The position numbers were made by a program, and so were the translations under genes. A stretch of DNA of 47,352 nt from positions 1-47,352 of the forward strand of contig JANQPR010000030.1 of NCBI GenBank assembly GCA_028285385.1, read 5' to 3'. The notes beneath the pieces were generated by a model, which saw only the letters and a program-made list of their open reading frames with translations, was not told the origin of the DNA and made no database searches. Source of the stretch: Phycisphaera sp. (GTDB taxonomy: Bacteria > Planctomycetota > Phycisphaerae > Phycisphaerales > Phycisphaeraceae). Positions 18,286-36,406 of this stretch are shown piece by piece. The stretch's first letter is position 1. The number at the start of each line of letters is the position of its first letter.

Positions 18286-19050
18286 ACTTGATTCCTCTTG
18301 GCAACGCGCCGTAAGCCACGAATCATCTTGACGGGTCTTGCAGCCACCGAGTCGAGCGCGGGCTTCTTTCTCACCCTATTCCAAGCTTGCCGCCTCTCGA
18401 CTCGGGGGGTAAATAGCGACGTCGGGTGAGATCGATCTCGAAGCCGCTATCAATCCCGAGGTACTGCGTTGGGCGCGTGTTCAACGAAACACCTGTTCCA
18501 TGATTTCGATGACGGTGAGCGAGGGTGAGCCGGATCGTCCACCGAAACACCCCACACGCCCAAGGCCGGCGTGTTACTAGGCTTGTTTGGCTTGGTCGTC
18601 TGAAGCCTGGACAACTCTTCTGTCGATTGACTGCCAGTTCGTTAAGATGAGTGTGTACTGGGGTTTAGTCATCACAGACAACCTACCGTGACTTTGTGCA
18701 GAAATTGCGTCTATTGCGATATTGGTTTTCGAATGTACGAAGCCCACGTCGTGGCGCATAAAATTGATTTGCAGGCTTGACTGCTGCTTCAAGGGAGTTG
18801 TCATGCCCTCGAGTTTTCAAAGTGACTGCCTTCGATTGCTTTTCTGAACATCCGTCGACGGCAAGACAGCAACAACGACCTGCCTGGTCCCGACGCCGTT
18901 TCCGGGTTTGGACCTCCCACTTGTCCCGGTCTTGGTCTCGGTCAACAGACTTAAAGGCTTGGGTCCTCGGAGAACGGCCGTGCGTGAACGGGTAGCTGGC
19001 TCCGCGCTTCCCTTGGCCTAGATTGTCCGCACGCCACTGCCCGTGGCAAC

Positions 19051-19185
19051 GAACCCAACCGAGCCCTATACAAACCCTGCTAGTTGATCTCAGGTCGTCC
19101 AGAGAAGAAGGCCCGCCGTAAGTGACGGGCCTTTCGTGGGTTGCAAAGTAGCGGGGGCAGGATTCGAACCTGCGACCTCCGGGTT
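19051..19185. repeat. Direct-repeat copy 1: conserved block, hairpin terminator (19108-19135), then the 3' half of a minus-strand tRNA (T-arm and acceptor, 19147-19185)
   Basis: cccaaccgagccctatacaaaccctgc ... aaggcccgccgtaagtgacgggcctttc ... agtagcgggggcaggattcgaacctgcgacctccgggtt. The copy at 29877-30010 is near-identical, with diverged spacers between the blocks. Confidence 0.7.
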
Positions 19186-19371
19186 GTAAGACGCAACCGG
19201 ATGATCGCGTAATCTCTGATTGCACTTGATTTTGCGTCGTTTTCCGGATCTGAGGGCGCGGCCGAATGAGGCAGAATGTGGTGTATCGGGAGCGCGCGGC
19301 GAGCCCGATACGAGCCTTCATTGCCAGGATGAAAGCCGGTCACCGAAGCAGGTCAGGCGACGGTGCGAGAG

Positions 19372-19616: not shown

Positions 19617-19689
19617 CGGCCCTCCCCGGACTCGAACCGGGCACCTCCGGATTCAGAGTCCGGCGTGCATCCCGTTGCACCTGAGGGCT
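19617..19689 (-). tRNA. tRNA-Gln(CTG)
   Basis: Manual fold. The D-stem is gtgc/gcac. The anticodon stem is ccgga/tccgg with loop ctctgaa. The T-arm is cccgg-ttcgagt-ccggg and the discriminator is G. Confidence 0.65.
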
Positions 19690-19704
19690 TGCTTGCATTC
19701 CAAG

Positions 19705-19787
19705 TGGGACAGGACGGAGTCGAACCGCCACAGCCTTTCGGCGGCTGGTTTACAGCCAGCTGGGCTCGCCGGTGCCCAAGCTGCCCC
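19705..19787 (-). tRNA. tRNA-Tyr(GTA), type II
   Basis: Acceptor ggggcag/ctgtccc. Anticodon stem gctgg/ccagc with loop ctgtaaa. The variable arm is 14 nt long and the T-loop is ttcgact. Confidence 0.7.
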
Positions 19788-19791
19788 GCGC

Positions 19792-19838
19792 CGGAAAGTC
19801 TTCCCGCCAATGTCGCGTTTGCAGTGAAGACTTTCCGG
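19792..19838. promoter_or_regulatory. Perfect 13-bp inverted repeat hairpin between tRNA-Ser and tRNA-Tyr
   Basis: The arms ccggaaagtcttc and gaagactttccgg are separated by a 21-nt loop. Confidence 0.5.
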
Positions 19839-19847
19839 TCAGGCGTA

Positions 19848-19934
19848 GCGGAAGGCGGAGGACTCGAACCCCAAGCGGCGTACGCTCCACCCGTTTTCGA
19901 GACGGGGGCCGCCCCGACGGCGGGCTTCACCTTC
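19848..19934 (-). tRNA. tRNA-Ser(CGA), type II
   Basis: Acceptor ggaaggt/gccttcc. Anticodon stem cccgt/acggg with loop ctcgaaa. It has a long variable arm and a ttcgagt T-loop. Confidence 0.65.
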
Positions 19935-19968
19935 CGGAATGCCGCTCGCTCCAACGCGAGCAGGGTCA

Positions 19969-20039
19969 ATACCCCGTCCGGGTTTCGATCCCGGTCCTCC
20001 GGCTTGAAAGGCCGGCGTCTCGCCATTCGACCAACGGGG
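19969..20039 (-). tRNA. tRNA-Glu(TTC) with non-canonical T-loop ATCGAAA
   Basis: Acceptor gccccgt/acggggt. Anticodon stem ccggc/gccgg with loop ctttcaa. It has a 4-nt variable loop. The T-arm is ccggg-atcgaaa-cccgg. Confidence 0.55.
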
Positions 20040-20084
20040 CGTTGTCACGAGTACTGAACAGGCACGGCTTGCGCTCCTTTTCAA

Positions 20085-20172
20085 GCGGAAGGCGGTGGGC
20101 ACGATCCACAGGCGCTCGTGCGCCCCATCCGGCTAGCAACCGGAGCGGCGGCCGGCCCGCCGTTCACCTTCC
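20085..20172 (-). tRNA. tRNA-Ser(GCT), type II, non-canonical T-loop ATCGTGC
   Basis: Acceptor ggaaggt/gccttcc, the same as in Ser-CGA. Anticodon stem tccgg/ccgga with loop ttgctag. The variable arm forms ggcgc-acga-gcgcc. Confidence 0.55.
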
Positions 20173-20180
20173 AAGTCAAG

Positions 20181-20253
20181 AGGCCGGAGCGGGAATCGAA
20201 CCCGCATCTGGCGCGGTTGCAGCGCGCCGCCTTTACCATTCAGCCACCCGGCC
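20181..20253 (-). tRNA. tRNA-Cys(GCA)
   Basis: Acceptor ggccggg/tccggcc. Anticodon stem gcgcg/cgcgc with loop ctgcaac. T-arm gcggg-ttcgatt-cccgc. Confidence 0.7.
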
Positions 20254-20286
20254 ACGTTGAAGAGCGGATCAACGCGACGGAAATCG

Positions 20287-20313
20287 TGCGGCCGGCACCT
20301 TTCCGGCCGCACG
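20287..20313. terminator. GC hairpin downstream of the 274-aa gene (minus strand), terminator-like
   Basis: gtgcggccgg-cacctttc-cggccgcac. Confidence 0.4.
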
Positions 20314-20321
20314 GGTTAGGG

Positions 20322-21143
20322 TCAGTCGAGAAACGCCACGTGGCGCATCGCCCGGGCCTCGGGCTCGGTGTTCATCACGACCTCGCACCACCCGTTGAGC
20401 CGGATGGTCTTGTGGTCGGGGTGACGCACCTTGCCTCGCACAAGCAACTTGGGGTTGCGACGCATGACCTGGAACCGCTCACGGCGGGCCTGGTCGGGGT
20501 TGCGACGCATCCAATCGCGGTACTTGTCACCGGTCAGGCCGGTCGGGTGTTGGCGGCTGACGTAGACCGTCTCGCCGCCGTGACGCACCAACTCATCGAC
20601 CCAGTGCGGCTTGCTCCCCGCGCCGCGCGAGAGCGGCTCGTTGCGGAGGATCAGACGGGGGTCGATGTTCGCATCGGGACGAGGGATGAAGAACCATTCA
20701 CCCTGACGCACGAACGCGCGGTTCTTGCGTCGTCTGCCGTCCCGCGCCTTGAGCCCGACGCGGGCTTCGGCGTCGTTTACGGCATTGGGCTTGAGGGCCT
20801 GCATCGCGGTCCGGACGTTGGAAGCGCGGGCCGCTTCGGGCACCGCCGCCACGAACCAGTGGCGCTCGTCGTGACCGCAGAGGAACTTCTGCCGGCCTTC
20901 GGTCGAGTCGCGGTGGTCTACTTGCAGCAGCAGGTGCCGCTCACGGGGACGCACGTCGGTGACGTCGACGCGTTCCAGCCGGTCCGGGGCGGCCGTCAGG
21001 TTGAAAAACTCACCACGACGGTCCTGTCCGATGTCGATGCTCAGGGCGCCGGTGCGCTGCCACCACAAATGCCGCTGGGGCGGGGTGATCACAGCGCGGG
21101 CGCCCACACGGGCGAACTTCTCGATCAGCATGTCGTTGTCCAT
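20322..21143 (-). CDS. Hypothetical protein (274 aa) embedded in the tRNA array
   Basis: The start was set at MDNDMLIEKF, because the longer ORF-track extension runs through tRNA-Gly(GCC). It contains two H-x-T-x tetrads (HPTG, HKTI) of uncertain significance. Confidence 0.5.
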   Translation of the reverse strand: MDNDMLIEKFARVGARAVITPPQRHLWWQRTGALSIDIGQDRRGEFFNLTAAPDRLERVDVTDVRPRERHLLLQVDHRDSTEGRQKFLCGHDERHWFVAAVPEAARASNVRTAMQALKPNAVNDAEARVGLKARDGRRRKNRAFVRQGEWFFIPRPDANIDPRLILRNEPLSRGAGSKPHWVDELVRHGGETVYVSRQHPTGLTGDKYRDWMRRNPDQARRERFQVMRRNPKLLVRGKVRHPDHKTIRLNGWCEVVMNTEPEARAMRHVAFLD

Positions 21144-21265
21144 GACATGTCCTTTCAGGGAAGTGCGAATGTTCAGCGTCAGCGCAGGCCGACGCTTCCA
21201 TGCTTCGAGGGGGTACTGGGTTCCATCGGGTCTCCTTGAGTGAGAGGGAAAGGGGGATTCGAGCA

Positions 21266-21336
21266 ATGCGGCCGACAGGAATCGAACCTGCTCCTCCGCC
21301 GTGGCGGGGCGGCGTTCTGCCGGCGAACTCCGGCCG
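21266..21336 (-). tRNA. tRNA-Gly(GCC) with C33
   Basis: Acceptor gcggccg/cggccgc. D-stem gttc/gaac. Anticodon stem ccgcc/ggcgg with loop ccgccac. T-arm gcagg-ttcgatt-cctgt. Confidence 0.55.
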
Positions 21337-21343
21337 CATGAAT

Positions 21344-21381
21344 CGGCGTCGGGGTCGATAGACCGCGACGCCGCTGAGTTT
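21344..21381. terminator. Hairpin plus T-tract just downstream of the SPFH gene
   Basis: Stem cggcgtcg ... cgacgccg, followed by ctgagtttt on the plus strand. Confidence 0.35.
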
Positions 21382-21407
21382 TCACAAGGTCCGTGTTGAA
21401 GCACCGG

Positions 21408-22568
21408 CTACGCCTCGTTGGACTCGTTGAGTTCATCGAGTACGCAGCCCGGCTTGTCTTCCGTGGCCGTCAGGCTTCGCACCTGCCCGAGCAGGTCGCC
21501 CTGGCCGAGCACGAACGTCGCCTTCGTGCCCCGGAGCACGTCCTGCAGCGCCTCGAGTTCCTTCATTCGGGCGAGCACCGGGTTATCCGCGAGGAGCTTG
21601 GCCGTGTTCGCCTGGCTCCGGGCGGCGGCGGTCTCTTCGCGCCGACGGATCAGGTTGGCTTCGGCCTGCTTCTGGGCGAGGATCACCTCGTTGAGGATCG
21701 CCTTCATGTCGCCCGGCAGGATCACGTCCCGCAAGCCAACGCCCAGCACCTCGACGCCGAACTCGGCCGCACGCTTCAACAGCGCGTTGCGCACCTCACC
21801 GCCGACCGCGTCCTTGTCGGCCAGCAGCTTGTCGAGCGCCCGCCCGCCGACCGCTTCCCGCAATGCGAGCTGCGCCTCCCGGTACAGCGCCTGGGTGTAG
21901 TCGGCGACCGTCTCAACGGCCTTGCGCACCTCGGCCACGCGGTACGACACGACCAGGTTGATCCGCAGCGTCACCTTGTCCGCCGTCATGATCTCCTGAC
22001 CCGCCACGTCGGCCACCTGCTCGCGCAGGTCGACCGACTTCCACGTGATCTTGCCGGCGTGCTTCCAGTACACGTGCAGCCCCGGGCCGAGCTCGCTGAC
22101 CAGCCCGCCCTCCCGGAACAGGAGCACGCGCTCGTGCGCCTCGACGCGGACGCCGTCGAGGAAGTTCGCCCCGCCGCGGAAGCCGAGAATCGCCTCGATC
22201 TTCAGGTGCGTGAAGGCGAAGTCGTTGACGTTGAACGTCTCGACTTCAAGCTCGGCCGGGCCGTCCCAGAACACATGCCGTCCCGGGCCGAGGACCCAGC
22301 CGAGCCGGCCGTCTTTCCACACGAGCGCCCGCTCGTCGTCCTTGAGGTCGACCACGCGCAGCTTCTCGAGCAGCGCCGGCTCACGCACGAGCACCTCGAG
22401 GAGCTTGTGATCAAACTTGGTCTGGGTCCGGTCGACCACCTCGACGCGGTCCTTGCGCAGCCGACGCCAAGGCAGCCGGTAGGCCCCGGGGGTCAGCACC
22501 TGCTTGAAGTCGCCGTGGCGGAACCACAGGCCGACTTCGTGCTTACGGATACGAGTCTTCGCAAACAT
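21408..22568 (-). CDS. SPFH / band-7 (stomatin-prohibitin) family membrane-associated protein
   Basis: Start at MFAKTRIRK, with AAAGGAG 7 nt upstream on the coding strand. The SPFH core is LVVSYRVAEVRKAVETVADYT...ILPGDMKAI, followed by a C-terminal coiled coil. Confidence 0.75.
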   Translation of the reverse strand: MFAKTRIRKHEVGLWFRHGDFKQVLTPGAYRLPWRRLRKDRVEVVDRTQTKFDHKLLEVLVREPALLEKLRVVDLKDDERALVWKDGRLGWVLGPGRHVFWDGPAELEVETFNVNDFAFTHLKIEAILGFRGGANFLDGVRVEAHERVLLFREGGLVSELGPGLHVYWKHAGKITWKSVDLREQVADVAGQEIMTADKVTLRINLVVSYRVAEVRKAVETVADYTQALYREAQLALREAVGGRALDKLLADKDAVGGEVRNALLKRAAEFGVEVLGVGLRDVILPGDMKAILNEVILAQKQAEANLIRRREETAAARSQANTAKLLADNPVLARMKELEALQDVLRGTKATFVLGQGDLLGQVRSLTATEDKPGCVLDELNESNEA

Positions 22569-22985
22569 GGTCTTGGCTCCTTTCTCTAGGAAAGCCGGTG
22601 AGAGACACACCGCCGTGAACACCACAGCGACAGAAGGAATCGATCGAAGACGAAAATGACGTGGGCCGGTCGCGGCGCCGGGTGGCGCGACGCCGGGTCG
22701 GCGGCGGGGCCGGGCTTGAGCCGGGGCAGGGAGCGCCGTCGTGAACCGGCCGGGACGCGCCGCCGCCTCACCCCCGCGGAGTGCGGTCGGCGCGCCGGGC
22801 CGGTTCACCGTTTGGGCCGCGATGGCCCCACGCTTTGCCCCGGCGGGATCCGCCCGGCCGCAGAGCCGAGTCGCCGGTGCCGGTCGCACGACCACCGTGA
22901 TTCCGAAAACCACGGCCGCCACACGCCGACCCGCCGCGCCGGTCGGGCCACGCCGGACCCACGTCGAGGGCAGACGCTACTCGCG

Positions 22986-23035
22986 TCCAAGGAGGGGGAT
23001 TCGAACCCCGAGGGTGGGCAAACCCTTGCCGTTCC
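22986..23035 (-). pseudogene. tRNA 3'-fragment (T-arm ggggg-ttcgaat-ccccc plus acceptor) with no matching 5' half
   Basis: gagggggattcgaacccc on the plus strand. No complementary 5' acceptor or anticodon arm was found. Confidence 0.3.
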
Positions 23036-23102
23036 AGGCAGGAATCGAACCTGCGACCGACGGATTCATCGTCCGTTGCTCTAACCGACTGAGCTACTGG
23101 TT
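23030..23102 (-). pseudogene. tRNA-like (Ile/Ala-type D-arm tagctcagtcggttagagc) with aberrant anticodon loop cgatgaa and only 4 acceptor pairs; probable pseudo-tRNA
   Basis: T-arm gcagg-ttcgatt-cctgc. Anticodon stem acgga/tccgt. The acceptor pairs caaccag with ctggaac. Confidence 0.3.
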
Positions 23103-23175
23103 GATGTCAGACCGGAGTCGAACCGGTGTCTCCGGGATAACGGTCCCAGCGCTCTTCCTGTTGAGCTACTGACGC
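23103..23175 (-). tRNA. tRNA-like with abnormal anticodon loop (6- or 8-nt; stem ctggg(a)/(t)cccgg)
   Basis: Acceptor gcgtcag/ctgacat with one mismatch. D-arm tagctcaacaggaagagc. T-arm accgg-ttcgact-ccggt. The anticodon is undetermined. Confidence 0.35.
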
Positions 23176-23268
23176 CCCCGTACAGCCCGGCAGAACCCGT
23201 GTCGCGGAACGCCGACCGCTGATCGCAAAGCGAAGCGGGTGACGCCGCCGGACGAGCCGTACGGTTAA

Positions 23269-23341
23269 CACGCGCGAAAGGACTCGAACCTCTACCTTGC
23301 GGATTTGGAATCCGCCGCTCTACCGATTGAGCTACACGCGC
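23269..23341 (-). tRNA. tRNA-Trp(CCA)
   Basis: Anticodon stem gcgga/tccgc with loop ttccaaa. D-arm tagctcaatcggtagagc. T-loop ttcgagt. Confidence 0.7.
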
Positions 23342-23364
23342 AGACAATGCGATCCCAAGCATAG

Positions 23365-23436
23365 CTGCACCGGCAGGAGTCGAACCCGCAACCCGCTCCT
23401 TAACAGGGAGCCGCACTACCGTTGTGCTGCGGTGCA
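23365..23436 (-). tRNA. tRNA-Asn(GTT)
   Basis: Acceptor tgcaccg/cggtgca. D-stem gcac/gtgc. Anticodon stem gctcc/ggagc with loop ctgttaa. Confidence 0.7.
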
Positions 23437-23602
23437 TTTGGACCGAAGTGACCGAATATTTTCGTTGACAACTCCGACATGATGGCTTTATGGTCGAGTC
23501 GGACGCGGCGCGATGTCGTACCCGTCACTGCGTGCCCACCGCGGCGATTTCGGGTGGCCGTTGGTTCATCCCAGAACCGTATTTTGGTCAAGGAGGAGTT
23601 TC

Positions 23603-24313
23603 ATGCGCTGTCTATGCTTTGCTTCTGTCGCGGTGGTGGTTTGTTTGACATCGGTTAGCTCCGCCATGGCGGCTATCGATCCGGTGGGCTCGAGCCTGAC
23701 GACGGCCACCAATGTCCGCGTGCCGACCAACAACACCCTCGACTCGGATACCGACACCGATTCCCAAGGGGCCGTGATCCTTCCGTTGGACTCGTCGGTT
23801 TCGTCGAGTTTCTCCAGTATCAACGGATCGATTCAGTCGGACGCTACGGCGAACGCGACCTGGAGCGGCCCCGGCGAAGGCAGCTTGACTTACGAGTTTG
23901 TTTCGAATGTCGAGGCCATCAATTTGAACAGCCCGGGGACCTCGTCTTCATACGAGTGGACTTACAGCTTTATCCTCGACCAACCCGCCGAACTGTCCTT
24001 CGTGGCGGAATCGGTCCTTCAGTTCAATGACAATCCGTCGCGAGTTGACCAGTTCATCTTTTTCACGATCGACGGCGTCAGGCAGGAGGCCAACGGTCCC
24101 ACGATGAGGAGTCTTGCCATCGGCGCTCATACGATTGGATTCGATAACTTCCTGGGCGTCGGTGGCGGAGGTAGTTCTACTAACGTTACTCGGCTCTCCC
24201 CCGGTTCGGTCGATTGGCGGATCACGATCGTGCCTGAGCCGGCTTCCTGTCTTGTGTTCGCCTCGATGGCTTCGGTCTTTTTGATGCCGCGTCGAATCTG
24301 TTCTTGCCGTTAG
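23603..24313 (+). CDS. PEP-CTERM secreted protein (third paralogue class), located inside the tRNA array on the opposite strand
   Basis: AAGGAGG RBS. Signal peptide MRCLCFASVAVVVCLTSVSSAMA. C-terminal IVPEPASCLVFASMASVFLMPRR. Confidence 0.6.
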   Translation: MRCLCFASVAVVVCLTSVSSAMAAIDPVGSSLTTATNVRVPTNNTLDSDTDTDSQGAVILPLDSSVSSSFSSINGSIQSDATANATWSGPGEGSLTYEFVSNVEAINLNSPGTSSSYEWTYSFILDQPAELSFVAESVLQFNDNPSRVDQFIFFTIDGVRQEANGPTMRSLAIGAHTIGFDNFLGVGGGGSSTNVTRLSPGSVDWRITIVPEPASCLVFASMASVFLMPRRICSCR

Positions 24314-24347
24314 TGGTACTTGGGCCACCGTGTTTCACGGCTATCAA

Positions 24348-24420
24348 CCGCCCCGGCGGGACTCGAACCCGCACCATCCCGTTTAGAAGACGGGTGCTCT
24401 TCCGGTTAAGCGACGGGGCA
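24348..24420 (-). tRNA. tRNA-Arg(TCT)
   Basis: Anticodon stem cccgt/acggg with loop cttctaa. T-arm gcggg-ttcgagt-cccgc. Confidence 0.65.
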
Positions 24421-24500
24421 CCCCGGAAGGGGCGTGCGTGGCGGCGGCGAGCAGTTTGGTCATGCGCCATCGCTTGCGAGAGATCCGGAGACCAAGGAGA

Positions 24501-24573
24501 AGCTGGCGGCCGGATTCGAACCGGCGTGATCCGTATTACGAGTACGGCGCTTGAGCCACTCAGCCACACCAGC
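24501..24573 (-). tRNA. tRNA-Thr(CGT)
   Basis: Acceptor gctggtg/cgccagc. Anticodon stem ccgta/tacgg with loop ctcgtaa. T-arm gccgg-ttcgaat-ccggc. Confidence 0.65.
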
Positions 24574-24584
24574 GCTGGAGTAAG

Positions 24585-24657
24585 TGACCCCCGTGGGATT
24601 CGAACCCACACCCAACGGATTAAAAGTCCGCTGCTCTGCCGATCGAGCTACGGGGTC
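24585..24657 (-). tRNA. tRNA-Lys(TTT)
   Basis: D-arm tagctcgatcggcagagc. Anticodon stem gcgga/tccgt with loop cttttaa. T-arm gtggg-ttcgaat-cccac. Confidence 0.7.
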
Positions 24658-24686
24658 GACGCCACAGATCGACAACCAACTTGGAA

Positions 24687-24760
24687 TGAAACGGGTGGGC
24701 CACGATCCCACAACCTGCCGGTTAAGAGCCGGCTGCTCTGCCTGTTTGAGCTACCGTTTC
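24687..24760 (-). tRNA. tRNA-Lys(CTT) with non-canonical T-loop ATCGTGG
   Basis: Acceptor gaaacgg/ccgtttc. Anticodon stem gccgg/ccggc with loop ctcttaa. Confidence 0.55.
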
Positions 24761-25473
24761 AGAAAAAAAGGCTTTAGCGCAAGTTCTTGCCTTCTTGCCG
24801 GTGATCGCCCGGCGGGTCTGACCCGCCGAACGCTGCACACGGGGTGGTTAGCCCCTGCACCGACTTTGCCCCTGTTGTTGCGGTGTTGGCCGCACGCAAC
24901 AGCACGCAGGTCCTGCACGGCTGTTCTGAGGTAGGTGTCGAAGGTTGGCCGACCCCGACACCGCTCCCATCCGTTTTGGACGCCTGGGACGTCCGCCGCC
25001 GATCCCTTTCGGGCAGGCGCGGCCGGGTTTCCCCTGCCGCCGTAGGCACTTCCAGACTCGTGCAGTGACGCCTTGCGCGGTCTCCCGCGCTTTCCCAGGA
25101 CCACAACCCGGCGCTCAGAGAGCTGCCTCCGGGTTTCTAGAGTGGTCGATCGGTTCCTGCGATAGGCATCCCAATCCGCAGGTTCCGCGGGCCCGCACTC
25201 CGTGGGTGGCACCACGGCTCAAGGCCCTTGGCTGCTAAGGGTTTCACGCCTGCCACGGCGCTGATCCCTCCCCGGGCGGGTCGGCATCGTTGCGGCGCTG
25301 CCACGCCGCTCAGCCGAGCCGGGTTCCCCCTATCACGCGTTCGCGTGCCCGCCGCCCCGATCAGGCAGACAGGTTTGGTTCCCGAGGGCTGGGAGAACCG
25401 ACCCGACACGCACCTCACGTGTCGGAGCCGGGTAGGAGAGAAAAAGCATTTGAAACCAACACGCCGGCCGGGC

Positions 25474-26706
25474 TCAGTCCTTGTAGGGGTCGAGCTCGTC
25501 CTCGCCCGCCATCGCCACACCGATCGGCGTGAGCGTGTGGACAATGCGCACGGTGTCGCCGTGGGCCGCGAGCACCTCGGGGAGGCGCTTGTAGCAGTGC
25601 GGCGACTCGTCGGTGCCGGCGCCGCGAAGCTCGACACCGGCCTTCTTGACCCAGGCCTTCATCATCGCCGGGGTGATCTGGCCTTCGGTCTTGCGAACAA
25701 AACCTCCGGCCTTCTTGTCCCAGCGCTTCTTGCCTGCGGCCTGGGTCCGGCTCATCACCCGCCCGGCGCCGTGGACGGTCGAGTGCAGCGTCTTGACGCC
25801 GTCCTCGCTCTCGACCCCCTCGAGGACGACCGAGATGTCGCCCATCGACCCGCCGACAAACCCGCGTTGCCCCGGGAACGCCGGCGTCGCGCCCTTGCGG
25901 ACGACCCAGACTTCGAGCTCGTGGCCGTCGATCTCTTGGGTTTCCTTCCAGGCGAAGTTGTGGTGGTTGTGAACCTCCTCCACGATCTTCGTCTTGAGGA
26001 GCCGGGCGACCTTCTGGCACACCCAGTCGCGGCCCGCATAGGCGTAGCGCCCCGCCAGGTGCATGCACCGCAGGTACGACTCGCCCAGGTGGGAGTGCTC
26101 GTGGAACAGTACCGGCGCGACGTGCATGCCGTCCGTGCCACCGCCTTTCTCCACAAAGAACTTCGCGAGCCGGTGGCCGAGGCCGCGGGAGCCAAAGTGC
26201 ACGCCGCACCACACGCGGTCTTGCTCGTCCACGAACAGGTCGACGTAGTGGTTACCCGAGCCGACGGTACCGAGCTGCTTACGGGCCAACTCTTTGAGGT
26301 TCTGTGCGCCGCGGACGCGGATGCGCAGGCCATCGACGAGGCCCCATGCTTCGTCATCGAACAGTTCGTGGTCGACGTCCTCCTGGTTCTTCCGGCCGAC
26401 GCCGAATGAGATCTCCCGGTAGATCAGGTCCATGATCTTGCCGATGCCGCGCTTGACGTCATCGGCCTTGAGGTCGAGGCGGACGGCCTTGTTGCCGCAG
26501 GCGATGTCGTAGCCCACGCCGGACGGCGAGACCATGCCGTGGTACGCCACCACGCCGCCGATCGGCATCGCGTAGCCGACGTGGTGGTCACCCATCAGTG
26601 CCCCGGCCGCCGCGTCCTTGTCGGCCAGGCAGGTCTGGATCTGACGCACGGCCTGCGCATCTGGCACGCCCCAGACCGGCACGCCTTCCATCATCGTGCA
26701 ACCCAT
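25474..26706 (-). CDS. rtcB: RNA-splicing ligase RtcB (3'-phosphate/5'-OH RNA ligase)
   Basis: The conserved RtcB blocks are full length: GYAMPIGGV, GYDIACG, GSGNHYVDL, HFGSRGLGH and GAGR. The start was set at MGCTMMEG; the ORF-track N-terminal extension overlaps tRNA-Gly(TCC). Confidence 0.85.
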   Translation of the reverse strand: MGCTMMEGVPVWGVPDAQAVRQIQTCLADKDAAAGALMGDHHVGYAMPIGGVVAYHGMVSPSGVGYDIACGNKAVRLDLKADDVKRGIGKIMDLIYREISFGVGRKNQEDVDHELFDDEAWGLVDGLRIRVRGAQNLKELARKQLGTVGSGNHYVDLFVDEQDRVWCGVHFGSRGLGHRLAKFFVEKGGGTDGMHVAPVLFHEHSHLGESYLRCMHLAGRYAYAGRDWVCQKVARLLKTKIVEEVHNHHNFAWKETQEIDGHELEVWVVRKGATPAFPGQRGFVGGSMGDISVVLEGVESEDGVKTLHSTVHGAGRVMSRTQAAGKKRWDKKAGGFVRKTEGQITPAMMKAWVKKAGVELRGAGTDESPHCYKRLPEVLAAHGDTVRIVHTLTPIGVAMAGEDELDPYKD

Positions 26707-26756
26707 GTCACACCTCGCTTCCTTTCTACGTTCTCGTGTTTCTTCTTGGTGTTCAA

Positions 26757-26830
26757 TGCGTCGTGCCGGAATCGAACCGGCGGCCTCCGGATTGGAAGTC
26801 CGGCGCTCGGCCATCGTGAGCTCACGACGC
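26757..26830 (-). tRNA. tRNA-Gly(TCC)
   Basis: Acceptor gcgtcgt/acgacgc, a perfect pair. Anticodon stem ccgga/tccgg with loop cttccaa. It lies 50 nt upstream of the rtcB start. Confidence 0.75.
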
Positions 26831-26887
26831 GGAGGGTCTGCATCCTGCCGCTCCGAGCGAATCATTCCTTAAAAGTAGTAGTCACGG

Positions 26888-27142
26888 TTAACGCCGTCGT
26901 ACCGGCCCGTCTTCATGCAGCACTTCTTGAAAGGACTTGCCGGAACCGCAGGGGCAGCGGTCGTTGCGCCCGAGCTTCTCGATCAACTCCTTGTTGCCGT
27001 GCACGACCCGGTTGCCGCGCTTGACGTTCGTTTCGGACGGGAACCCTTTCCTTCGCTTGCTGGTGACCTCAAAAATAGAACTCGTCGTACGTCTCGTTGT
27101 GTGGATGCACGGGGCACCTCCTTTCAAATGGAAAGTGATCAA
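26888..27142 (-). CDS. Small SEC-C zinc-motif protein (84 aa)
   Basis: C-terminal [14 protein letters not shown] is a SEC-C metal-binding motif. The start codon abuts the tRNA-Pro(CGG) 3' end, so the true start and expression are uncertain. Confidence 0.35.
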
Positions 27143-27143
27143 G

Positions 27144-27217
27144 TCAGGGCAGCAGGACTCGAACCTGCGACCTCCCCGATCCGAACGGGGCGCTCTGGCC
27201 GGCTGAGCTACACCCTG
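27144..27217 (-). tRNA. tRNA-Pro(CGG)
   Basis: Anticodon stem ccccg/cgggg with loop ttcggat. D-arm tagctcagccggccagagc. Confidence 0.7.
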
Positions 27218-27271
27218 GCGATGGTGTGGTGAGTCACGCGGACGACGCGCAACCTCCCATGGCTAGGCAAG

Positions 27272-27346
27272 GGTGACGGACGGGACTCGAACCCGCTTCC
27301 GCCGGGTTCACCGCCCGGCACCTCGGCCACTTCGGCTTCCGCCACC
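27272..27346 (-). tRNA. tRNA-His(GTG)-like: 8-bp acceptor stem (G-1:C73) but G33 in the anticodon loop
   Basis: Acceptor ggtggcgg/ccgtcacc. Anticodon stem (g)ccggg/cccgg(c) with loop cggtgaa. T-arm gcggg-ttcgagt-cccgt. Confidence 0.45.
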
Positions 27347-27393
27347 ATCAACCCCGGGGCGCAGTCAAGCTTCGCGGCTTACTTCCGGGGGAA

Positions 27394-27466
27394 TCAGAGC
27401 GGCAGGGTTCGAACCTGCGGCCTCCCGGTCCCAAGCCGGGCGCTCTGCCGACCGAGCTCCGCTCTG
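27394..27466 (-). tRNA. tRNA-Pro(TGG)
   Basis: Acceptor cagagcg/cgctctg (C1:G72). Anticodon stem cccgg/ccggg with loop cttggga. Confidence 0.7.
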
Positions 27467-27481
27467 TCGCGATCAACGCGG

Positions 27482-27552
27482 TGGAGAAGGCGGGACTCGA
27501 ACCCGCATCACCCGCTTGCAAGGCGGGGGCTCTTCCGTTGAGCTACATCCCC
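27482..27552 (-). tRNA. tRNA-Ala(TGC)
   Basis: The G3:U70 identity pair is present. Anticodon stem cccgc/gcggg with loop cttgcaa. Confidence 0.65.
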
Positions 27553-27564
27553 GAGACAATCGAA

Positions 27565-27638
27565 TATCGCCGGGAGGATTCGAACCTCCAACCCCCGGGA
27601 TCTCGGCCCGGGCCCTCTGCCAGTTGGGGTACGGCGAC
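27565..27638 (-). tRNA. Class-I tRNA with anticodon GAG (nominally Leu) and C33; discriminator A73
   Basis: Acceptor gtcgccg/cggcgat. D-arm ta-cccc-aactggca-gagg. Anticodon stem ccggg/cccgg with loop ccgagat. The variable loop is 5 nt. Confidence 0.45.
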
Positions 27639-27657
27639 ACGTTGGTGACACGACAAA

Positions 27658-27730
27658 TACCGCCGGCAGGATTCGAACCTGCACTGAACCGATTCTGAGT
27701 CGGTGCCCTCTTCCGTTGGGGTACGGCGGC
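27658..27730 (-). tRNA. Class-I tRNA with anticodon CAG (nominally Leu), short variable loop; discriminator A73; paralogue of the preceding gene
   Basis: Acceptor gccgccg/cggcggt. Anticodon stem accga/tcggt with loop ctcagaa. The variable loop is tcagt. Confidence 0.5.
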
Positions 27731-27751
27731 TGATCAGGCGTAAGACAGCAG

Positions 27752-27823
27752 TCACTCCGGCAAGACTCGAACTTGCAGCCTTCGGCTTCGGAAACCGATG
27801 CTCTTCCGTTGAGCTACGGAGTG
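27752..27823 (-). tRNA. tRNA-Arg(CCG)
   Basis: Acceptor cactccg/cggagtg. Anticodon stem tcggt/gccga with loop ttccgaa. Confidence 0.65.
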
Positions 27824-27866
27824 TCGTAGGTGCGATCAACCGGCAGTAACGGGCGTGCCCGATGAA

Positions 27867-27937
27867 CGAGGCCGGCGGGAGTCGAACCCGCAACCGCCGG
27901 TTCAAAGCCGGCCGCTCTGCCGTTGAGCTACGGCCCG
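27867..27937 (-). tRNA. tRNA-Gln(TTG)
   Basis: Anticodon stem gccgg/ccggc with loop ctttgaa. T-arm gcggg-ttcgact-cccgc. The 1:72 pair is a mismatch. Confidence 0.6.
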
Positions 27938-27947
27938 GTTGTCGCAG

Positions 27948-28020
27948 TCACCCCGGCAGGACTCGAACCTGCAACCGCCGGATTCGTAGTCCGGGGCTCT
28001 TCCGATTGAGCTACGAGGTG
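27948..28020 (-). tRNA. tRNA-Arg(ACG)
   Basis: Acceptor cacctcg/cggggtg. Anticodon stem ccgga/tccgg with loop ctacgaa. Confidence 0.7.
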
Positions 28021-28026
28021 ATCCAA

Positions 28027-28100
28027 CGGCACTGGCGGGCCTCGAACCCGCGACCTCTTCCGTGACAGGGAAGCGCTCTGGCCAACTGAGCTACAGCACC
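28027..28100 (-). tRNA. tRNA-Asp(GTC)
   Basis: Anticodon stem cttcc/ggaag with loop ctgtcac. D-arm tagctcagttggccagagc. Confidence 0.7.
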
Positions 28101-28185
28101 TTCGAGCCGTGCAGGGCCAAGCCCCCGTGCGTCGTCGTCCGCCTTACCGCGACGCGCGTCTATAACACGGCTCGTGGCACGCCAA

Positions 28186-28257
28186 TCGACCCGGGAGGAT
28201 TCGAACCTCCGGCCTGCCGGTTATCAGCCGGCCGCTCTGCCACTGAGCTACGGGTCA
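28186..28257 (-). tRNA. tRNA-Ile(GAT)
   Basis: Anticodon stem gccgg/ccggc with loop ctgataa. T-arm ggagg-ttcgaat-cctcc. Confidence 0.7.
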
Positions 28258-28262
28258 GTTGC

Positions 28263-28312
28263 GACGGCCCGCCGACCCCCCGGCGCCCGATTGCGCCGGG
28301 GGCGGGCCGTCG
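28263..28312. promoter_or_regulatory. Long GC-rich hairpin (~19 bp in two stem segments) inside the tRNA array
   Basis: gacggcccg...cccccggcgc-ccgattg-gcgccggggg...cgggccgtc. Confidence 0.45.
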
Positions 28313-28361
28313 TCGTTGCATTGATCCGCTCTTCACTTGTCAAAGAACTCGTCACTCGTTT

Positions 28362-28380
28362 CGCGTGAACCGTTCACGCG
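28362..28380. promoter_or_regulatory. Perfect 19-bp palindrome (operator-like) upstream of tRNA-Phe
   Basis: cgcgtgaac-c-gttcacgcg. Confidence 0.4.
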
Positions 28381-28414
28381 TTCCGTCCAACCCCCCACAT
28401 ACTTCCGGGGGCAG

Positions 28415-28486
28415 CCGCTGGTCCAGGAATCGAACCTGGGGCTCCCGCTTTTCACGCGGGCGCTTTGCCGGCTAAGCGAACCAGCG
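28415..28486 (-). tRNA. tRNA-Phe(GAA)
   Basis: Acceptor cgctggt/accagcg. Anticodon stem cccgc/gcggg with loop gtgaaaa. Confidence 0.7.
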
Positions 28487-28496
28487 TTCCGTCCAA

Positions 28497-28569
28497 TCGC
28501 CGCGGCCGGATTCGAACCGGCAGCCTCCTCGTTGTGAGCGAGGCGCTCTCGCCGTTGAGCTACGCGGCA
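28497..28569 (-). tRNA. tRNA-Val(CAC)
   Basis: Anticodon stem cctcg/cgagg with loop ctcacaa. T-arm gccgg-ttcgaat-ccggc. Confidence 0.65.
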
Positions 28570-28647
28570 GCTTTGGCACGCCGACCGCGCAGACGAACCA
28601 AGTCGTCTTCAGCGGCGCGGAAGGACGTGTCGTCGTCGGGTTGTCAG

Positions 28648-28720
28648 TAGCGGCGGCGGGATTCGAACCCGCGGTCTCGAGAACATGACTCTCGCGAGGA
28701 CTCCGCTCCTCTACGCCGCG
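28648..28720 (-). tRNA. tRNA-Met(CAT) with initiator-like traits (unpaired C1/U72, A11:U24)
   Basis: Acceptor cgcggcg/cgccgct. D-stem gagg/cctc. Anticodon stem cgaga/tctcg with loop gtcatgt. Confidence 0.55.
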
Positions 28721-28735
28721 TCCTTTCGTCGTCAG

Positions 28736-28807
28736 TCGCGATGGCTGGATTTGAACCAGCGACCTCTCCCGTATGAAGGGCGTGCTCTGCCGTTGAGCTA
28801 CATCGCG
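28736..28807 (-). tRNA. tRNA-Met or Ile2 (CAT), elongator-type
   Basis: Acceptor cgcgatg/catcgcg. Anticodon loop ttcatac. T-arm gctgg-ttcaaat-ccagc. Confidence 0.55.
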
Positions 28808-28861
28808 TGTTGGTCATGGGTTTCCTTCGTCGTGCTTCCGGCTTTGGGCTTTGCGTTCGAG

Positions 28862-28933
28862 TGGTCACGGTTGGATTCGAACCAACGACTTCCTGCTTGT
28901 CGTGCAGGCGATCTTCCGCTGATCTACGCGACC
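28862..28933 (-). tRNA. tRNA-Val(GAC) with C33
   Basis: Acceptor ggtcgcg/cgtgacc. Anticodon stem cctgc/gcagg with loop acgacaa. Confidence 0.55.
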
Positions 28934-28942
28934 GGGGCAAAG

Positions 28943-29014
28943 TGACCTTGGCGGGACTCGAACCCGCAAGCTCCGCCTTGAGAGGGCGGCGTGCTGCCGT
29001 TGCACCACAAGGCC
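28943..29014 (-). tRNA. tRNA-Glu(CTC)
   Basis: Acceptor ggccttg/caaggtc. Anticodon stem ccgcc/ggcgg with loop ctctcaa. Confidence 0.65.
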
Positions 29015-29629
29015 TTGCGTGCGAAAAGCACTTGAAAACAAGGGCCAATCGGTCGTGGTAGAAGACGAATTAGGTTGTCGGGTCGGAAGGTGGGGCGCTC
29101 AGGCGGATAGCAGGGTACCGGGTCGGGCGGCCTGCCCGTCGGTATGTCGGCCCGCCGTATCGGTGGCCGCCAACGCAACGCCGGACATGCCGGCACCGGG
29201 GTAGCGACAACCTCGCCCGGGTCGATTGGCCGGACTGCCTTGACCCGCAAAGAACGCGGGCCGGCCGAGACCGCCAGGCAACACGGGCCGGACCGCACCT
29301 TGCGTGCGTTCGGCGTGGTTCAAGTTGTGTTGCTTGATGGTCATCGGGACACTTCCTTTACACGGGCACATGCCTGTGACGCGGAAACATATCGTCACTC
29401 TGTACCACATGCAATAGAAAAACGAGATCGTCGGGAAAAATGTTTGGTTCGCGCGGCGCAAGTGATGCGTTTATAGATTCTGGAGATTGGTCCGCTAGGC
29501 GAATGGATCAAGCCGACACGGCGTCGATGTAGCTACACGGACGCGCCGATTTGTCCCCCTCTGGAAATCTTGCTCCGACCTGAGTGAGAGAATCTGACCG
29601 GCTTACGACCGGAAAGGATTCTCCGATAG

Positions 29630-29848
29630 AAGAAGCGACATTCTCCCGAGCAGATCGTGGCCAAGCTGCGTCAGGCTGACGTGGAGTTGAGCAAGGGGCT
29701 TCGAGGCACTCAGGAAAGCCGTAACCAGCAAGCGAGCCACAACCCCGCGTATGCTTTGGTGCTGAGCACTATGCGCGACGACTTCAAACCAATTAACTGT
29801 ATGTGGCGGGCGGGCAGCGATGGTTTCGCGGTTTTATCGGGGGCGTAG
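29630..29848 (+). pseudogene. Remnant ORF whose first ~23 codons resemble the N-terminus of an IS3-family OrfA transposase
   Basis: The peptide KKRHSPEQIVAKLRQADVELSKG sits immediately after an in-frame stop. Similarity is lost after that and there is no full transposase. Confidence 0.3.
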
Positions 29849-29876
29849 TCATCCCGATGCTCGGTCAGGATCGACA

Positions 29877-30010
29877 AGCCCAACCGAGCCCTATACAAGC
29901 CCTGCCGCCACCACTGAGGCGGTCGACGAAAAAAGGCCCGCCGTAAGTGGCGAGCCTTTCATCGTTTAGAAAGTAGCGGGGGCAGGATTCGAACCTGCGA
30001 CCTCCGGGTT
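29877..30010. repeat. Direct-repeat copy 2 (block, hairpin terminator 29933-29960, tRNA 3' half 29971-30010)
   Basis: aagcccaaccgagccctatacaagccctgc ... aggcccgccgtaagtggcgagcctttc ... agtagcgggggcaggattcgaacctgcgacctccgggtt. It diverges from copy 1 exactly inside the anticodon loop. Confidence 0.7.
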
Positions 30011-30135
30011 ATGAGCCCACTACTGAGGTTTCCCGCAACGTCTTGACTGAACAACTGCTGCAGTCGTCCACGAGAGTTATGGCCTCTCGACAGCCACGCC
30101 CATGTTACTCATGTAGGTCATGTTTTTCAGCTCAT

Positions 30136-30159
30136 GTGGGGCAGTTTGTGGGGCAGTTT
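30136..30159. repeat. Tandem 12-bp direct repeat (gtggggcagttt x2)
   Basis: Seen directly at the island boundary. Confidence 0.5.
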
Positions 30160-30306
30160 TCCGAGAAGGGAGCCTTCCGTTGGGCATTGAGGTGGCTTCG
30201 GTGGGGATGCAAGTCGGAGATGGAACTTCCTGCGGGTAACCTTTGATTGGCCTGAATTTGACAGCGTCGCAGGCAAGAATGAGAAGAAGATTTATCGAGC
30301 AAACTC

Positions 30307-33723: not shown

Positions 33724-33729
33724 TGGAAC

Positions 33730-34254
33730 CTACTTGATTCGAGGTAACATGCAAAACTCAATGAACATCGCCATGCTTCCGACGAACACGATTACGGCGA
33801 TTAATAGCCAAGTCTCGCACCACCGCCATAAACTCGCCAACGAAGGTCTTTTCCGGTAACCGAGGCCAATCACCTCGTCGAACAGATCACATTCTTCGTC
33901 GCGGTTATCCCACCATGAGCCAACAGACGAAACAATCGTTGCCAACATGAAAATACCGACGCCGATTAACAGCCACTGAATGGCTCGCACGGCGATCCTA
34001 GCGTCCTCGGCTTCAAGCCCGACCTTTTCCCAGCTTGAGTAAGCAGTCACTCCGGCGATGACCAAGGCGGTGGAAATGGCTTGGAAGAACGACAGTGCTT
34101 TGAAGGTGTAGTCATTAAGTGACGCTTGCCGTTTGTGTACGAACTTCAGGCGCTCGAGCTTATAACCTTCCTGAAGGCCTTTGGCTTGCTCGTCAGTTGA
34201 ATTTGGGGTCCCCGTTCGCTGAGTGTTGGGATGGTCAGAGATATGAGTTGGCAT
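33730..34254 (-). CDS. Small membrane protein (3 predicted TM helices), operon partner
   Basis: Hydrophobic segments ALSFFQAISTALVIAGVTAY, WLLIGVGIFMLATIVSSV and LLIAVIVFVGSMAMFIEF. There is a 6-nt gap to the downstream gene. Confidence 0.5.
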   Translation of the reverse strand: MPTHISDHPNTQRTGTPNSTDEQAKGLQEGYKLERLKFVHKRQASLNDYTFKALSFFQAISTALVIAGVTAYSSWEKVGLEAEDARIAVRAIQWLLIGVGIFMLATIVSSVGSWWDNRDEECDLFDEVIGLGYRKRPSLASLWRWCETWLLIAVIVFVGSMAMFIEFCMLPRIK

Positions 34255-34338
34255 TATATACCCTGCGGATTGAAAGAAGGAAGACTCGGCGGCACTGCGC
34301 CGCGGCCCTGGAAGAGTTGAAATTCGATTCGCTTGGGA

Positions 34339-36345: not shown

Positions 36346-36406
36346 AAATACCCGGTCTTGTAGTCCTGCAGTTGATCCGCTTGGTTGGGTTTGTCACACG
36401 AGAGCA

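Follow-up and report, generated by a model that had tools for sequence, protein, structure and literature searches.

The 47,352-bp contig JANQPR010000030.1 of Phycisphaera sp. (Planctomycetota), one entire contig that we analysed as a whole and call the window, carries on its minus strand a dense array of transfer RNA (tRNA) genes into which protein genes are built, among them a gene for the RNA ligase RtcB. We consider it likely that this is a back-up array, of the kind known as a 'tRNA array unit' or 'L-array', that sits on a 10.8-kb insertion bracketed by repeats of initiator tRNA-fMet sequence and brings its own tRNA repair. The array itself belongs to an already known kind of element, to which it adds a good example but no new phenomenon. 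What is new here is the conserved protein-gene content of the array family, purifying selection on the structure of its tRNAs, the fMet insertion repeats and a set of conserved atypical tRNAs.

The array, its protein genes and its relatives

We called tRNA genes with ARAGORN and with the Rfam model RF00005, the latter at its gathering score (29 bits) and also in E-value mode. ARAGORN found 31 tRNA genes between 19617 and 29014, on the minus strand only, and RF00005 gave 30 matches at the gathering score (E-values 4e-13 to 0.015, lowest score 30.8 bits); tRNA-His scored 39.9 bits in E-value mode. Two further genes come from Rfam and from orthologues: an element at 23034–23100 that ARAGORN missed (48.9 bits with RF00005), and tRNA-Ser-CGA (19850–19935), which Rfam matched solely via its class-II tRNA-Sec model (35.3 bits, E 5e-4), which ARAGORN calls at the orthologous position of the related loci L004 and L010, and whose cloverleaf and CGA anticodon are legible in the window. 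This brings the number of tRNA and tRNA-like genes to 33, a density of 3.5 per kb over 9,398 bp, which exceeds both figures by which a tRNA array unit is defined (20 or more tRNAs, 2 or more per kb; Tran et al. 2016, PMC4758250). A sequence-only reading of this DNA had counted about 34 tRNAs on one strand in 9.4 kb; ARAGORN and Rfam bear out the strand, the span and the abundance, with one gene fewer. Every anticodon listed in that reading was reproduced, and its remark that protein genes are interleaved with the tRNAs agrees with our open reading frame (ORF) and domain searches. Its description of the anticodon coverage as near-complete was too generous: the array has 30 different anticodons and represents all 20 amino acids, and 13 sense codons cannot be read under generous wobble (ACC/ACT/ACA, TCT/TCC/TCA, TTA/TTG, CTA, GTA, ATA, CCC and GCC). 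In the protein genes of the array, which use ACC and TCC, these codons amount to 9.6% of the total, and in flanking genes to 14–15%. None of the array tRNA genes encodes the 3' CCA. The array is non-periodic (Tandem Repeats Finder reported one trivial 15-nt repeat, and the median pairwise identity of the window tRNAs is 0.61), and it is broken by four gaps of 0.9–2 kb that contain protein genes, one of them on the plus strand. Matches to the Rfam YrlA (Y-RNA-like) model within the array, at 25–31 bits against a 69-bit threshold, were rejected and attributed to the tRNA-like domain of that model falling on tandem tRNAs. One of the two CAT tRNAs (28647–28720, minus strand) has the initiator-type C1/A72 mismatch, lacks the GGG/CCC anticodon-stem pairs and carries the unusual loop GUCAUGU.

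Read along the minus strand, the module runs from a tight block of 17 tRNAs through a SEC-C ORF, tRNA-Gly-TCC, the RtcB gene, about 700 bp in which we found no convincing ORF, Lys-Lys-Thr-Arg, a plus-strand gene, Asn-Trp and a pair of odd tRNA-like elements to an SPFH gene, Gly-GCC, an unassigned 273-residue ORF (ORF273), six tRNAs and a gene for a MerR-type helix-turn-helix (HTH) protein (Table 1). The window RtcB matches RtcB of Pyrococcus horikoshii (4dwr/1uc2) with an E-value of 6e-29 and conserves the motifs GYDIxCG, GSGNH, HxGSRGLGH, HN and HGAGR, which we take, from the P. horikoshii structures, to be the active site (metal-binding Asp/Cys/His and the GMP-accepting His). Judged by its sequence, the enzyme looks intact. 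The SPFH protein is syntenic and 67–75% identical in L004, L006, L008, L009, L010 and L011, and the SEC-C ORF, whose conserved part spans residues 15–83, has tblastn matches of 66–77% identity in L004, L011 and L013. PADLOC returned nothing for RtcB, the SPFH protein or ORF273, and ORF273 also had no family match in Pfam or NCBIfam. Its structure is modelled with confidence (predicted local distance difference test, pLDDT, of 92), and fold searches gave no significant match and no solved structural neighbour. More than 6,400 homologous proteins of about 270 amino acids (aa) carry no annotated domain, and three of the four homologues sampled lie inside tRNA arrays (L170 6001–6825, L173 10001–10813 and L175 10001–10816). 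Many members of the ORF273 family are found on very short contigs, and the gene may lie in repeated DNA. The NCBIfam matches of the MerR-like protein are limited to the N-terminal HTH of the MerR/CueR/BldC models, and its gene stands at the same array end in L004, L005, L006, L010 and L011; this 69-aa protein is a candidate regulator or excisionase-like factor. The plus-strand gene, which encodes a PEP-CTERM-type secreted protein, is a host-type, window-specific insert in mid-array with a counterpart in no other array. One of only two sigma-70-like matches in the region (23465–23494) lies just upstream of it.

Is the arrangement particular to this contig? RtcB proteins 75–86% identical to that of the window form a small clade, all from Planctomycetota or Phycisphaeraceae metagenome-assembled genomes (MAGs), and the nine loci that we fetched from this clade hold the same array in the same gene order: Met, Met, Val, Phe, Ile, Asp, Arg, Gln, Arg, Leu..., Ala, an HNH gene, Pro, His, Pro, Gly, the RtcB gene, Lys, Lys, Thr, Arg, Asn, Trp, X, the SPFH gene, Gly, Cys, Ser, Glu, Ser, Tyr, Gln/Glu and the MerR gene. 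In terms of proteins the layout is tRNAs, (HNH), SEC-C, RtcB, tRNAs, SPFH, tRNAs, (ORF273) and MerR-like HTH, where, of the nine sister arrays, eight have the HNH gene; L004 and the window lack it. DNA similarity to the window extends from the first tRNA (29032) to within the MerR gene (19423), and beyond these limits the flanks are unrelated in every locus. A shorter variant of the same family, with 20 tRNAs and without Lys, Asn, Trp and Cys, is found in the 7.7-Mb contig of L170. In L173 and L175 the tRNAs follow another order, and these two loci belong to a second planctomycete array family. In L173 (1–12319 of the 9.1-Mb contig CAWLDL010000001.1), 29 tRNAs are accompanied by ORF273 and Band_7 homologues, and adjoining genes encode a phage-type integrase, an excisionase-like HTH_17 protein, a DnaB helicase and two 23S_rRNA_IVP products; in this case the element that carries the array does have an integrase. 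An HNH gene is also present in L175.

Other RtcB genes mostly stand apart from tRNAs. The RtcB of L002, 79% identical to that of the window, lies among ordinary metabolic genes without nearby tRNAs, and 51 of the 54 loci with an RtcB of at most 67% identity have 0–2 tRNAs. The remaining three, all from Acidobacteriota, have arrays of 13, 21 and 22 tRNAs beside an RtcB 60–65% identical to ours, and two of them (L066 and L085) also have an HNH gene 38–40% identical to the planctomycete array HNH; Acidobacteria had been classed as lacking L-arrays (PMC8421152). Among viral contigs with an RtcB gene, 7 of 80 have 8–32 tRNAs within 10 kb. RtcB beside a tRNA array is thus a recurring arrangement, seen in Acidobacteriota loci and viral contigs too. 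In the IMG/VR contigs L113, L151, L160, L117 and L154, an RtcB 54–58% identical to that of the window has 13–32 tRNA genes within 10 kb.

Does the array supply an extra set of tRNAs or the main one? Because the array leaves 13 sense codons unread, other tRNA genes must exist. Two MAGs carry two diverged arrays each (L008 with L009, and L012 with L013), L009 being closest to L013 and L008 to L012; binning error is disfavoured because each MAG holds one member of each of the two lineages. In L004, a canonical Glu-CTC lies 5 kb from the array and is only 62% identical to the array's Glu-CTC. Consistent with these observations, tRNA counts are reported to be elevated in those planctomycete genomes that have large clusters, one example being 96 versus 46–54 (PMC4807772). 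On this indirect evidence, the array is a supernumerary set and not the sole tRNA set. The view that the locus is an array unit and not a normal dispersed complement, already taken in the sequence-only reading, is upheld by the published density definition, the nine syntenic loci with unrelated flanks, the two-array MAGs, the fMet repeats and the unread codons.

Structural constraint and atypical tRNAs

To follow the evolution of the array tRNAs, we mapped those of the window onto their orthologues in the other arrays using ARAGORN's stem assignments. Pairing was kept in 722 of 833 changed stem-pair cells. Where both positions of a pair had changed (480 cells), 453 cells still pair and 27 break, compared with a chance expectation of about 37% pairing; the cells are not independent events and a few of the 'orthologues' may be paralogues, but the excess is still very large. 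Because double stem changes mostly keep their pairs, the array is not decaying: its tRNAs are under structural constraint and evolve by compensatory change. The label 'degenerate' given to planctomycete clusters (PMC4807772) reflects low model scores and not lost constraint. The sequence-only reading had likewise noticed several degenerate members, which holds for one 6-nt anticodon loop and one element without an acceptor stem and fails for the set as a whole, which is strongly compensatory. RF00005 scores were tried as a means to separate array from housekeeping tRNAs and abandoned, as the one tRNA outside the array in L004 scores 60.1 bits, within the array range of about 41–74.

Several array tRNAs are nonetheless unusual, and in a conserved manner: (i) the CAG, GAG and CAA tRNAs of every array are 73–76 nt long, with a variable region of 4–6 nt and no long arm, but still resemble class-II tRNA-Leu in their 3-bp D stem, large D loop and A73 (among the Leu-type array tRNAs the long arm is kept only by the TAA member); and (ii) U33, which is near-universal in tRNA anticodon loops, is replaced by C or G in 33 of 282 array tRNAs and kept in the other 249. 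The loss of U33 is conserved across loci and concentrated in Leu-GAG (C33 in 9 of 9), Gly-GCC, His and Val-GAC. Short Leu tRNAs (73–78 nt) also occur in the second planctomycete array family (L173 and L175) and in the Acidobacteriota locus L018.

Two tRNA-like elements follow the Trp gene. One has a 6-nt anticodon loop and was reported by ARAGORN as 'tRNA-???'. The other is a composite, in which a cloverleaf is followed by a hairpin and then by a second, T-arm-like hairpin. The composite element has the same position, between tRNA-Trp and the SPFH gene, in seven arrays; in the alignment of these seven loci its acceptor stem has 3 bp, its arms covary and its anticodon differs per locus. It matched no Rfam family beyond the partial match to tRNA.

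Insertion repeats, upstream block and flanking DNA

A direct repeat brackets the module (19049–19190 and 29874–30015, about 142 nt, spacing 10,825 bp), with a perfect core of about 41 nt and 83–91% identity elsewhere by pairwise alignment. The core matches the housekeeping initiator tRNA-fMet, of which it comprises the 3' half beginning at the anticodon loop. A 35-nt core query gave at least 120 exact metagenome matches, of which 104 of 120 fell in full-length tRNA-Met(CAT) genes; most of the matching loci hold that single tRNA only, and the commonest matches are to genes that start with C1 and have GGG/CCC in the anticodon stem. The proximal repeat copy lies on an initiator tRNA with a D-arm deletion, which scores 28.6 bits against the threshold of 29 and is uncalled by ARAGORN, and an intact target is thus not restored. 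In an independent Logan assembly (L001), a 100% match to window positions 29989–42712 breaks inside the repeat. The repeats have the classic layout of an island inserted in a tRNA gene and give a 10.8-kb insertion signature. Three features do not fit that layout: the repeat runs past the tRNA into the terminator, no integrase was detected between the repeats with Pfam, and the other arrays show no such repeats. Either a single homologous crossover from a circular intermediate or a recombinase acting in trans would fit. No empty site was found, since nothing in the metagenomes that we scanned matched the unique downstream part of the repeat. By eye, a plus-strand stretch at about 29600–29700 looks like the N-terminal part of an IS3-type transposase; Pfam gave no confirmation, and we make no such claim.

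Upstream of the array, a conserved motif occurs once, 68–171 nt before the first tRNA, in 8 of 10 arrays, and has 3 matches in 5.2 Mb of control DNA, a count that is only indicative since the motif was derived from the same arrays. The corresponding block of the window (29074–29103) is a candidate promoter or operator. A terminator scan found fewer terminator-like sites than in shuffled sequence.

The guanine-plus-cytosine (GC) content of the array (0.59–0.70) matches that of the left flank, and the right side (30.3–39 kb) has 0.53–0.56. At third codon positions it is 0.89 in array genes, 0.78 in flanking genes and 0.65 in genes of the low-GC island. In the comparison of GC content proposed in the sequence-only reading, the array thus equals the host left flank. 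The left flank encodes polysaccharide lyases, a GH95 protein, a DUF1559/prepilin-type protein and PEP-CTERM proteins. The low-GC island (30307–38492, minus strand), which immediately adjoins the array insertion on its upstream side, encodes proteins of 1138 aa (HD-CE and HATPase), 174, 668, 425 and 275 aa; the 668-aa protein corresponds in L001 to a 607-aa gene call with a Y4bO_3rd match, and the 425-aa protein has weak Lit/Peptidase_U49 and Sel1 matches. It looks like a separate acquired island of the defence type. Farther on (39016–46942, minus strand) lie genes for a patatin-like phospholipase (586 aa), a divergently transcribed HTH_3 protein and a 1077-aa DNA polymerase III alpha subunit (DnaE-type), together with an ArdC-type anti-restriction protein with a zincin peptidase domain (41837–42853), a mix that suggests a mobile-element or mutagenesis-cassette context.

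Table 1. Positions of the features described, in the window unless another locus is named.
Feature	Position	Strand	Details
MerR-family HTH protein, 69 aa	19375..19581	-	Last gene of the module; Pfam MerR 9e-18, MerR_1 6e-14, HTH_17 1e-5
ORF273, 273 aa	20322..21143	-	No family assignment; family very large, mostly Planctomycetota, recurs in tRNA arrays
SPFH/Band-7 (slipin/HflK-like) protein, 386 aa	21408..22568	-	Pfam Band_7 1.9e-31; partial NCBIfam HflK
Secreted protein, 266 aa	23513..24313	+	C-terminal PEP-CTERM-type sorting motif; translation end ...VPEPASCLVFASMASVFLMPRR...
RtcB RNA ligase (3'-phosphate/5'-hydroxyl), 410 aa	25474..26706	-	Pfam RtcB 2.4e-64, profile positions 16–424 of 426
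Small ORF with SEC-C metal-binding motif	26888..27142	-	Pfam SEC-C 2.1e-6; start codon uncertain
Six-tRNA block	19617..20253	-	Gln-CTG, Tyr-GTA, Ser-CGA, Glu-TTC, Ser-GCT, Cys-GCA; ARAGORN, Rfam, orthologues
tRNA-Gly-GCC	21266..21338	-	C33 replaces U33; ARAGORN, Rfam
tRNA-Trp-CCA and tRNA-Asn-GTT	23268..23436	-	ARAGORN, Rfam
tRNA-Arg-TCT, Thr-CGT, Lys-TTT, Lys-CTT	24348..24761	-	ARAGORN, Rfam
tRNA-Gly-TCC	26757..26830	-	ARAGORN, Rfam
Tight 17-tRNA block	27143..29014	-	Pro-CGG, His, Pro-TGG, Ala, Leu-GAG, Leu-CAG, Arg-CCG, Gln-TTG, Arg-ACG, Asp, Ile, Phe, Val-CAC, Met-CAT (two), Val-GAC, Glu-CTC; ARAGORN, Rfam; order common to nine other loci
Leu-type tRNAs without long variable arm	27565-27730		Orthologues in L004-L013, L170
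tRNAs without U33	27565-27638; 21266-21338; 27271-27345; 28861-28933		Leu-GAG; Gly-GCC; His; Val-GAC
tRNA-like element with 6-nt anticodon loop	23102-23176	-	ARAGORN 'tRNA-???'; Rfam 43.2 bits
Composite tRNA-like element	about 22950-23111	-	Cloverleaf at 23034-23100, hairpin, second T-arm-like hairpin
Composite element, relatives	L004 12053-12216; L006 11852-12015; L008 12947-13110; L009 11031-11194; L010 12150-12313; L011 11913-12076
Distal (left) repeat copy	19049..19190	-	fMet 3' half (19190-19150), terminator-like hairpin, about 60 nt more; no 5' half attached
Proximal (right) repeat copy	29874..30037	-	On degraded initiator tRNA-fMet (30037-29974); Rfam 28.6 bits
Conserved block upstream of first tRNA	29074..29103	-	Motif CnTRAG..CS..GACC..AMAAY
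Acidobacteriota RtcB-array loci	L018 16577-17850; L066 8040-11884; L085 5330-9413

Known arrays, competing explanations and meaning

Arrays of this kind are known from Planctomycetes, Cyanobacteria, Acidithiobacillus and others (PMC4758250, PMC8421152), and the L-arrays are described as spreading horizontally, with supernumerary genes and with HNH and rtcB genes in their neighbourhood (PMC8421152). The array studied here shares with them (Santamaria-Gomez et al. 2021) that it is supernumerary, patchy and variable in location and non-periodic; as to the same orientation required for co-transcription, all its tRNA genes are on the minus strand, but the four gaps of 0.9–2 kb intervene. The best-studied case, the L-array of Anabaena sp. 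PCC 7120, stays silent unless antibiotics that target the ribosome are given, in which case it aids survival; under standard conditions the L-arrays of Acidithiobacillus and Anabaena are poorly expressed, and a 'sponge' role has been proposed (PMC8421152). Loss of the repressor TrcR, which has an 18-nt binding site upstream of the array, de-represses the Anabaena trn operon together with rtcB (77-fold), the HNH gene all8564 (17-fold) and the slipin gene alr0740 (42-fold) (PMC10272220). The Anabaena array is likewise long, non-periodic, of a single orientation, supernumerary, patchy in distribution and linked to HNH and RtcB. It differs in an unrelated tRNA order, in its host phylum and in having its RtcB and SPFH genes elsewhere in the genome, whereas the window has both inside the array and the sister arrays include HNH too.

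Closer in phylogeny are the planctomycete clusters of Kim et al. (2016), of which one genome has two, with 23 and 28 tRNA genes, and which were called degenerate for their low Cove scores (PMC4807772, S2 Text); RtcB is found in the genomic-island gene list of genome P3 (PMC4807772). They resemble our array in phylum, in size (up to 28 tRNAs), in occurring twice per genome, in lying in horizontally acquired regions and in sub-canonical scores, but they were treated as partly degraded and dispensable, whereas here we find compensatory evolution and conserved protein genes. The tRNA-Ile-UAU to which Kim et al. give emphasis is absent from the window and present in L004 and L011. ICEAfe1 of Acidithiobacillus ferrooxidans, cited in PMC4758250 and PMC8421152, is another array on an inserted element, redundant with the housekeeping set; it is a conjugative element of about 300 kb with integration and transfer genes, whereas the module in the window has 10.8 kb and neither kind of gene between its repeats. 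Phage clusters such as the T4 tRNA region with SegB (cited in PMC8421152) similarly combine tRNAs with RNA ligase and with endonucleases of the HNH or homing type, and may make up for tRNAs that are depleted or cleaved; they differ in that the window shows no phage context or similarity to phage records and its RtcB is of the planctomycete type.

How might the back-up array work? It would be transcribed from the conserved block 68–171 nt before the first tRNA, and the transcript would be cut by RNase P and RNase Z, with a CCA-adding enzyme finishing the ends. By analogy with Anabaena, the array may provide a reserve of additional tRNAs, some of them atypical, for times when the ordinary tRNAs have been damaged or translation is hampered. 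RtcB would re-seal tRNAs cut by RNases, joining 2',3'-cyclic-phosphate or 3'-phosphate ends to 5'-OH ends, a chemistry that is established for the family, and the MerR-like protein may control expression or excision. RtcB, SPFH and HNH proteins probably work together, because their genes are built into the planctomycete arrays and are co-regulated in Anabaena.

Several observations weigh against this explanation. A sigma-70 scan upstream of the array yielded no promoter that we consider credible, and the plus-strand gene at 23513–24313 and gaps of up to 2 kb make it doubtful that the array forms one transcript; both operon transcription and a stress-induced role are carried over solely by analogy from Anabaena. 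TrcR is a ribbon-helix-helix protein whereas the candidate regulator of the window is the 69-aa MerR-type protein, the only regulator-like gene product of the module, and we saw no TrcR-like gene among the window ORFs examined. The window has no HNH gene. Pfam searches (E up to 1) detected no integrase or transposase between the repeats, and six other arrays showed no flanking direct repeats within 2.5 kb upstream and 3 kb downstream. Finally, co-binned strains could in principle account for two arrays per MAG.

A sharper version of the same explanation, with a specific trigger (tRNA-cleaving toxins such as the anticodon nucleases of toxin–antitoxin systems, defence systems or competitors), is that the atypical tRNAs are nuclease-resistant replacements and decoys, which escape or soak up such toxins while RtcB repairs the rest. 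We regard this as possible, and hold it tentatively. The family-concentrated loss of U33 in 33 of 282 tRNAs, the Leu tRNAs without a long arm in every array, the free-varying anticodon of the composite element, the embedding of RtcB within the array, the tRNA clusters beside RtcB in 7 of 80 viral contigs and the 'sponge' suggestion of PMC8421152 are consistent with it; however, no tRNase toxin gene was identified adjoining the array, 249 of the 282 tRNAs keep U33, and the atypical features could equally mean relaxed selection on redundant genes. Alternatively, the array might be a selfish or near-neutral relic, a collection of degenerate tRNAs carried by horizontal transfer with no host function. 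Such a relic could explain why planctomycete clusters were called degenerate (PMC4807772 S2 Text), why RF00005 scores fall to 30.8, why several members have odd loops or stems, why other L-arrays are poorly expressed (PMC8421152) and why host-type insertions have accumulated in the window copy. We nevertheless think it unlikely: 453 double changes are compensatory versus 27 that are not, the gene order and the embedded proteins are conserved across species at 66–86% protein identity, and the L004 tRNA from outside the array, at 60.1 bits, scores inside the array range of about 41–74.

Clusters of tRNA genes together with RNA ligases and HNH homing endonucleases are frequent in phages, and the sequence-only reading had likened the locus to the arrays of mobile elements and phages. 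The likeness to an array unit stands, but the phage and plasmid records searched showed no similarity beyond one 41-nt plasmid match, and the tRNAs are conserved and not degenerate. That the array is the remnant of a prophage or of a giant-phage tRNA cluster is accordingly very unlikely, even if such clusters with ligases and HNH genes are common, 7 of 80 viral RtcB contigs have at least 8 tRNAs within 10 kb and the neighbouring DNA holds anti-restriction (ArdC) and defence-like genes. A megablast search with the 11-kb region found nothing in 50,697 phage records and one 41-nt match only in 72,556 plasmid records, Pfam detected no phage structural or replication genes between the repeats, the viral RtcBs are at most 64% identical versus 79% for a chromosomal planctomycete RtcB, and the array and the host flank have the same GC content. 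This host-like GC, together with the coverage of 20 amino acids and the structural constraint on the tRNAs, would be expected of a main housekeeping tRNA operon, an explanation that we find barely credible given the 13 unread codons, including the ACC and TCC used by the array's own genes, the absence of an array beside the 79% identical RtcB of L002, the variable location between genomes, the two copies in each of two genomes and the insertion repeats that flank the window copy.

What does the back-up array mean for the family? Long arrays are scattered across bacteria, and functional data exist for the Anabaena array only. Here one cassette joins tRNAs, RtcB and SPFH, with HNH in most arrays, the gene kinds that Anabaena co-regulates from separate loci. 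A bolder and rather doubtful extension is that the array family is a self-contained countermeasure to tRNA damage, in which the atypical tRNAs (the Leu-type tRNAs that have lost the long arm, the families with C33 or G33, and the composite element) would have been selected to resist or decoy anticodon-loop RNases, RtcB repairs the rest, and the SPFH protein, ORF273 and the MerR-like protein are new accessory or regulatory parts. The Leu tRNAs without a long arm and the tRNAs that miss U33 offer concrete test cases for tRNA identity and nuclease resistance, and compensatory evolution corrects the earlier view of decaying planctomycete clusters. Independent linkage in a second phylum speaks in favour of one stress module made up of spare tRNAs and tRNA repair, and the linkage within the cassette suggests that the SPFH protein belongs to it.

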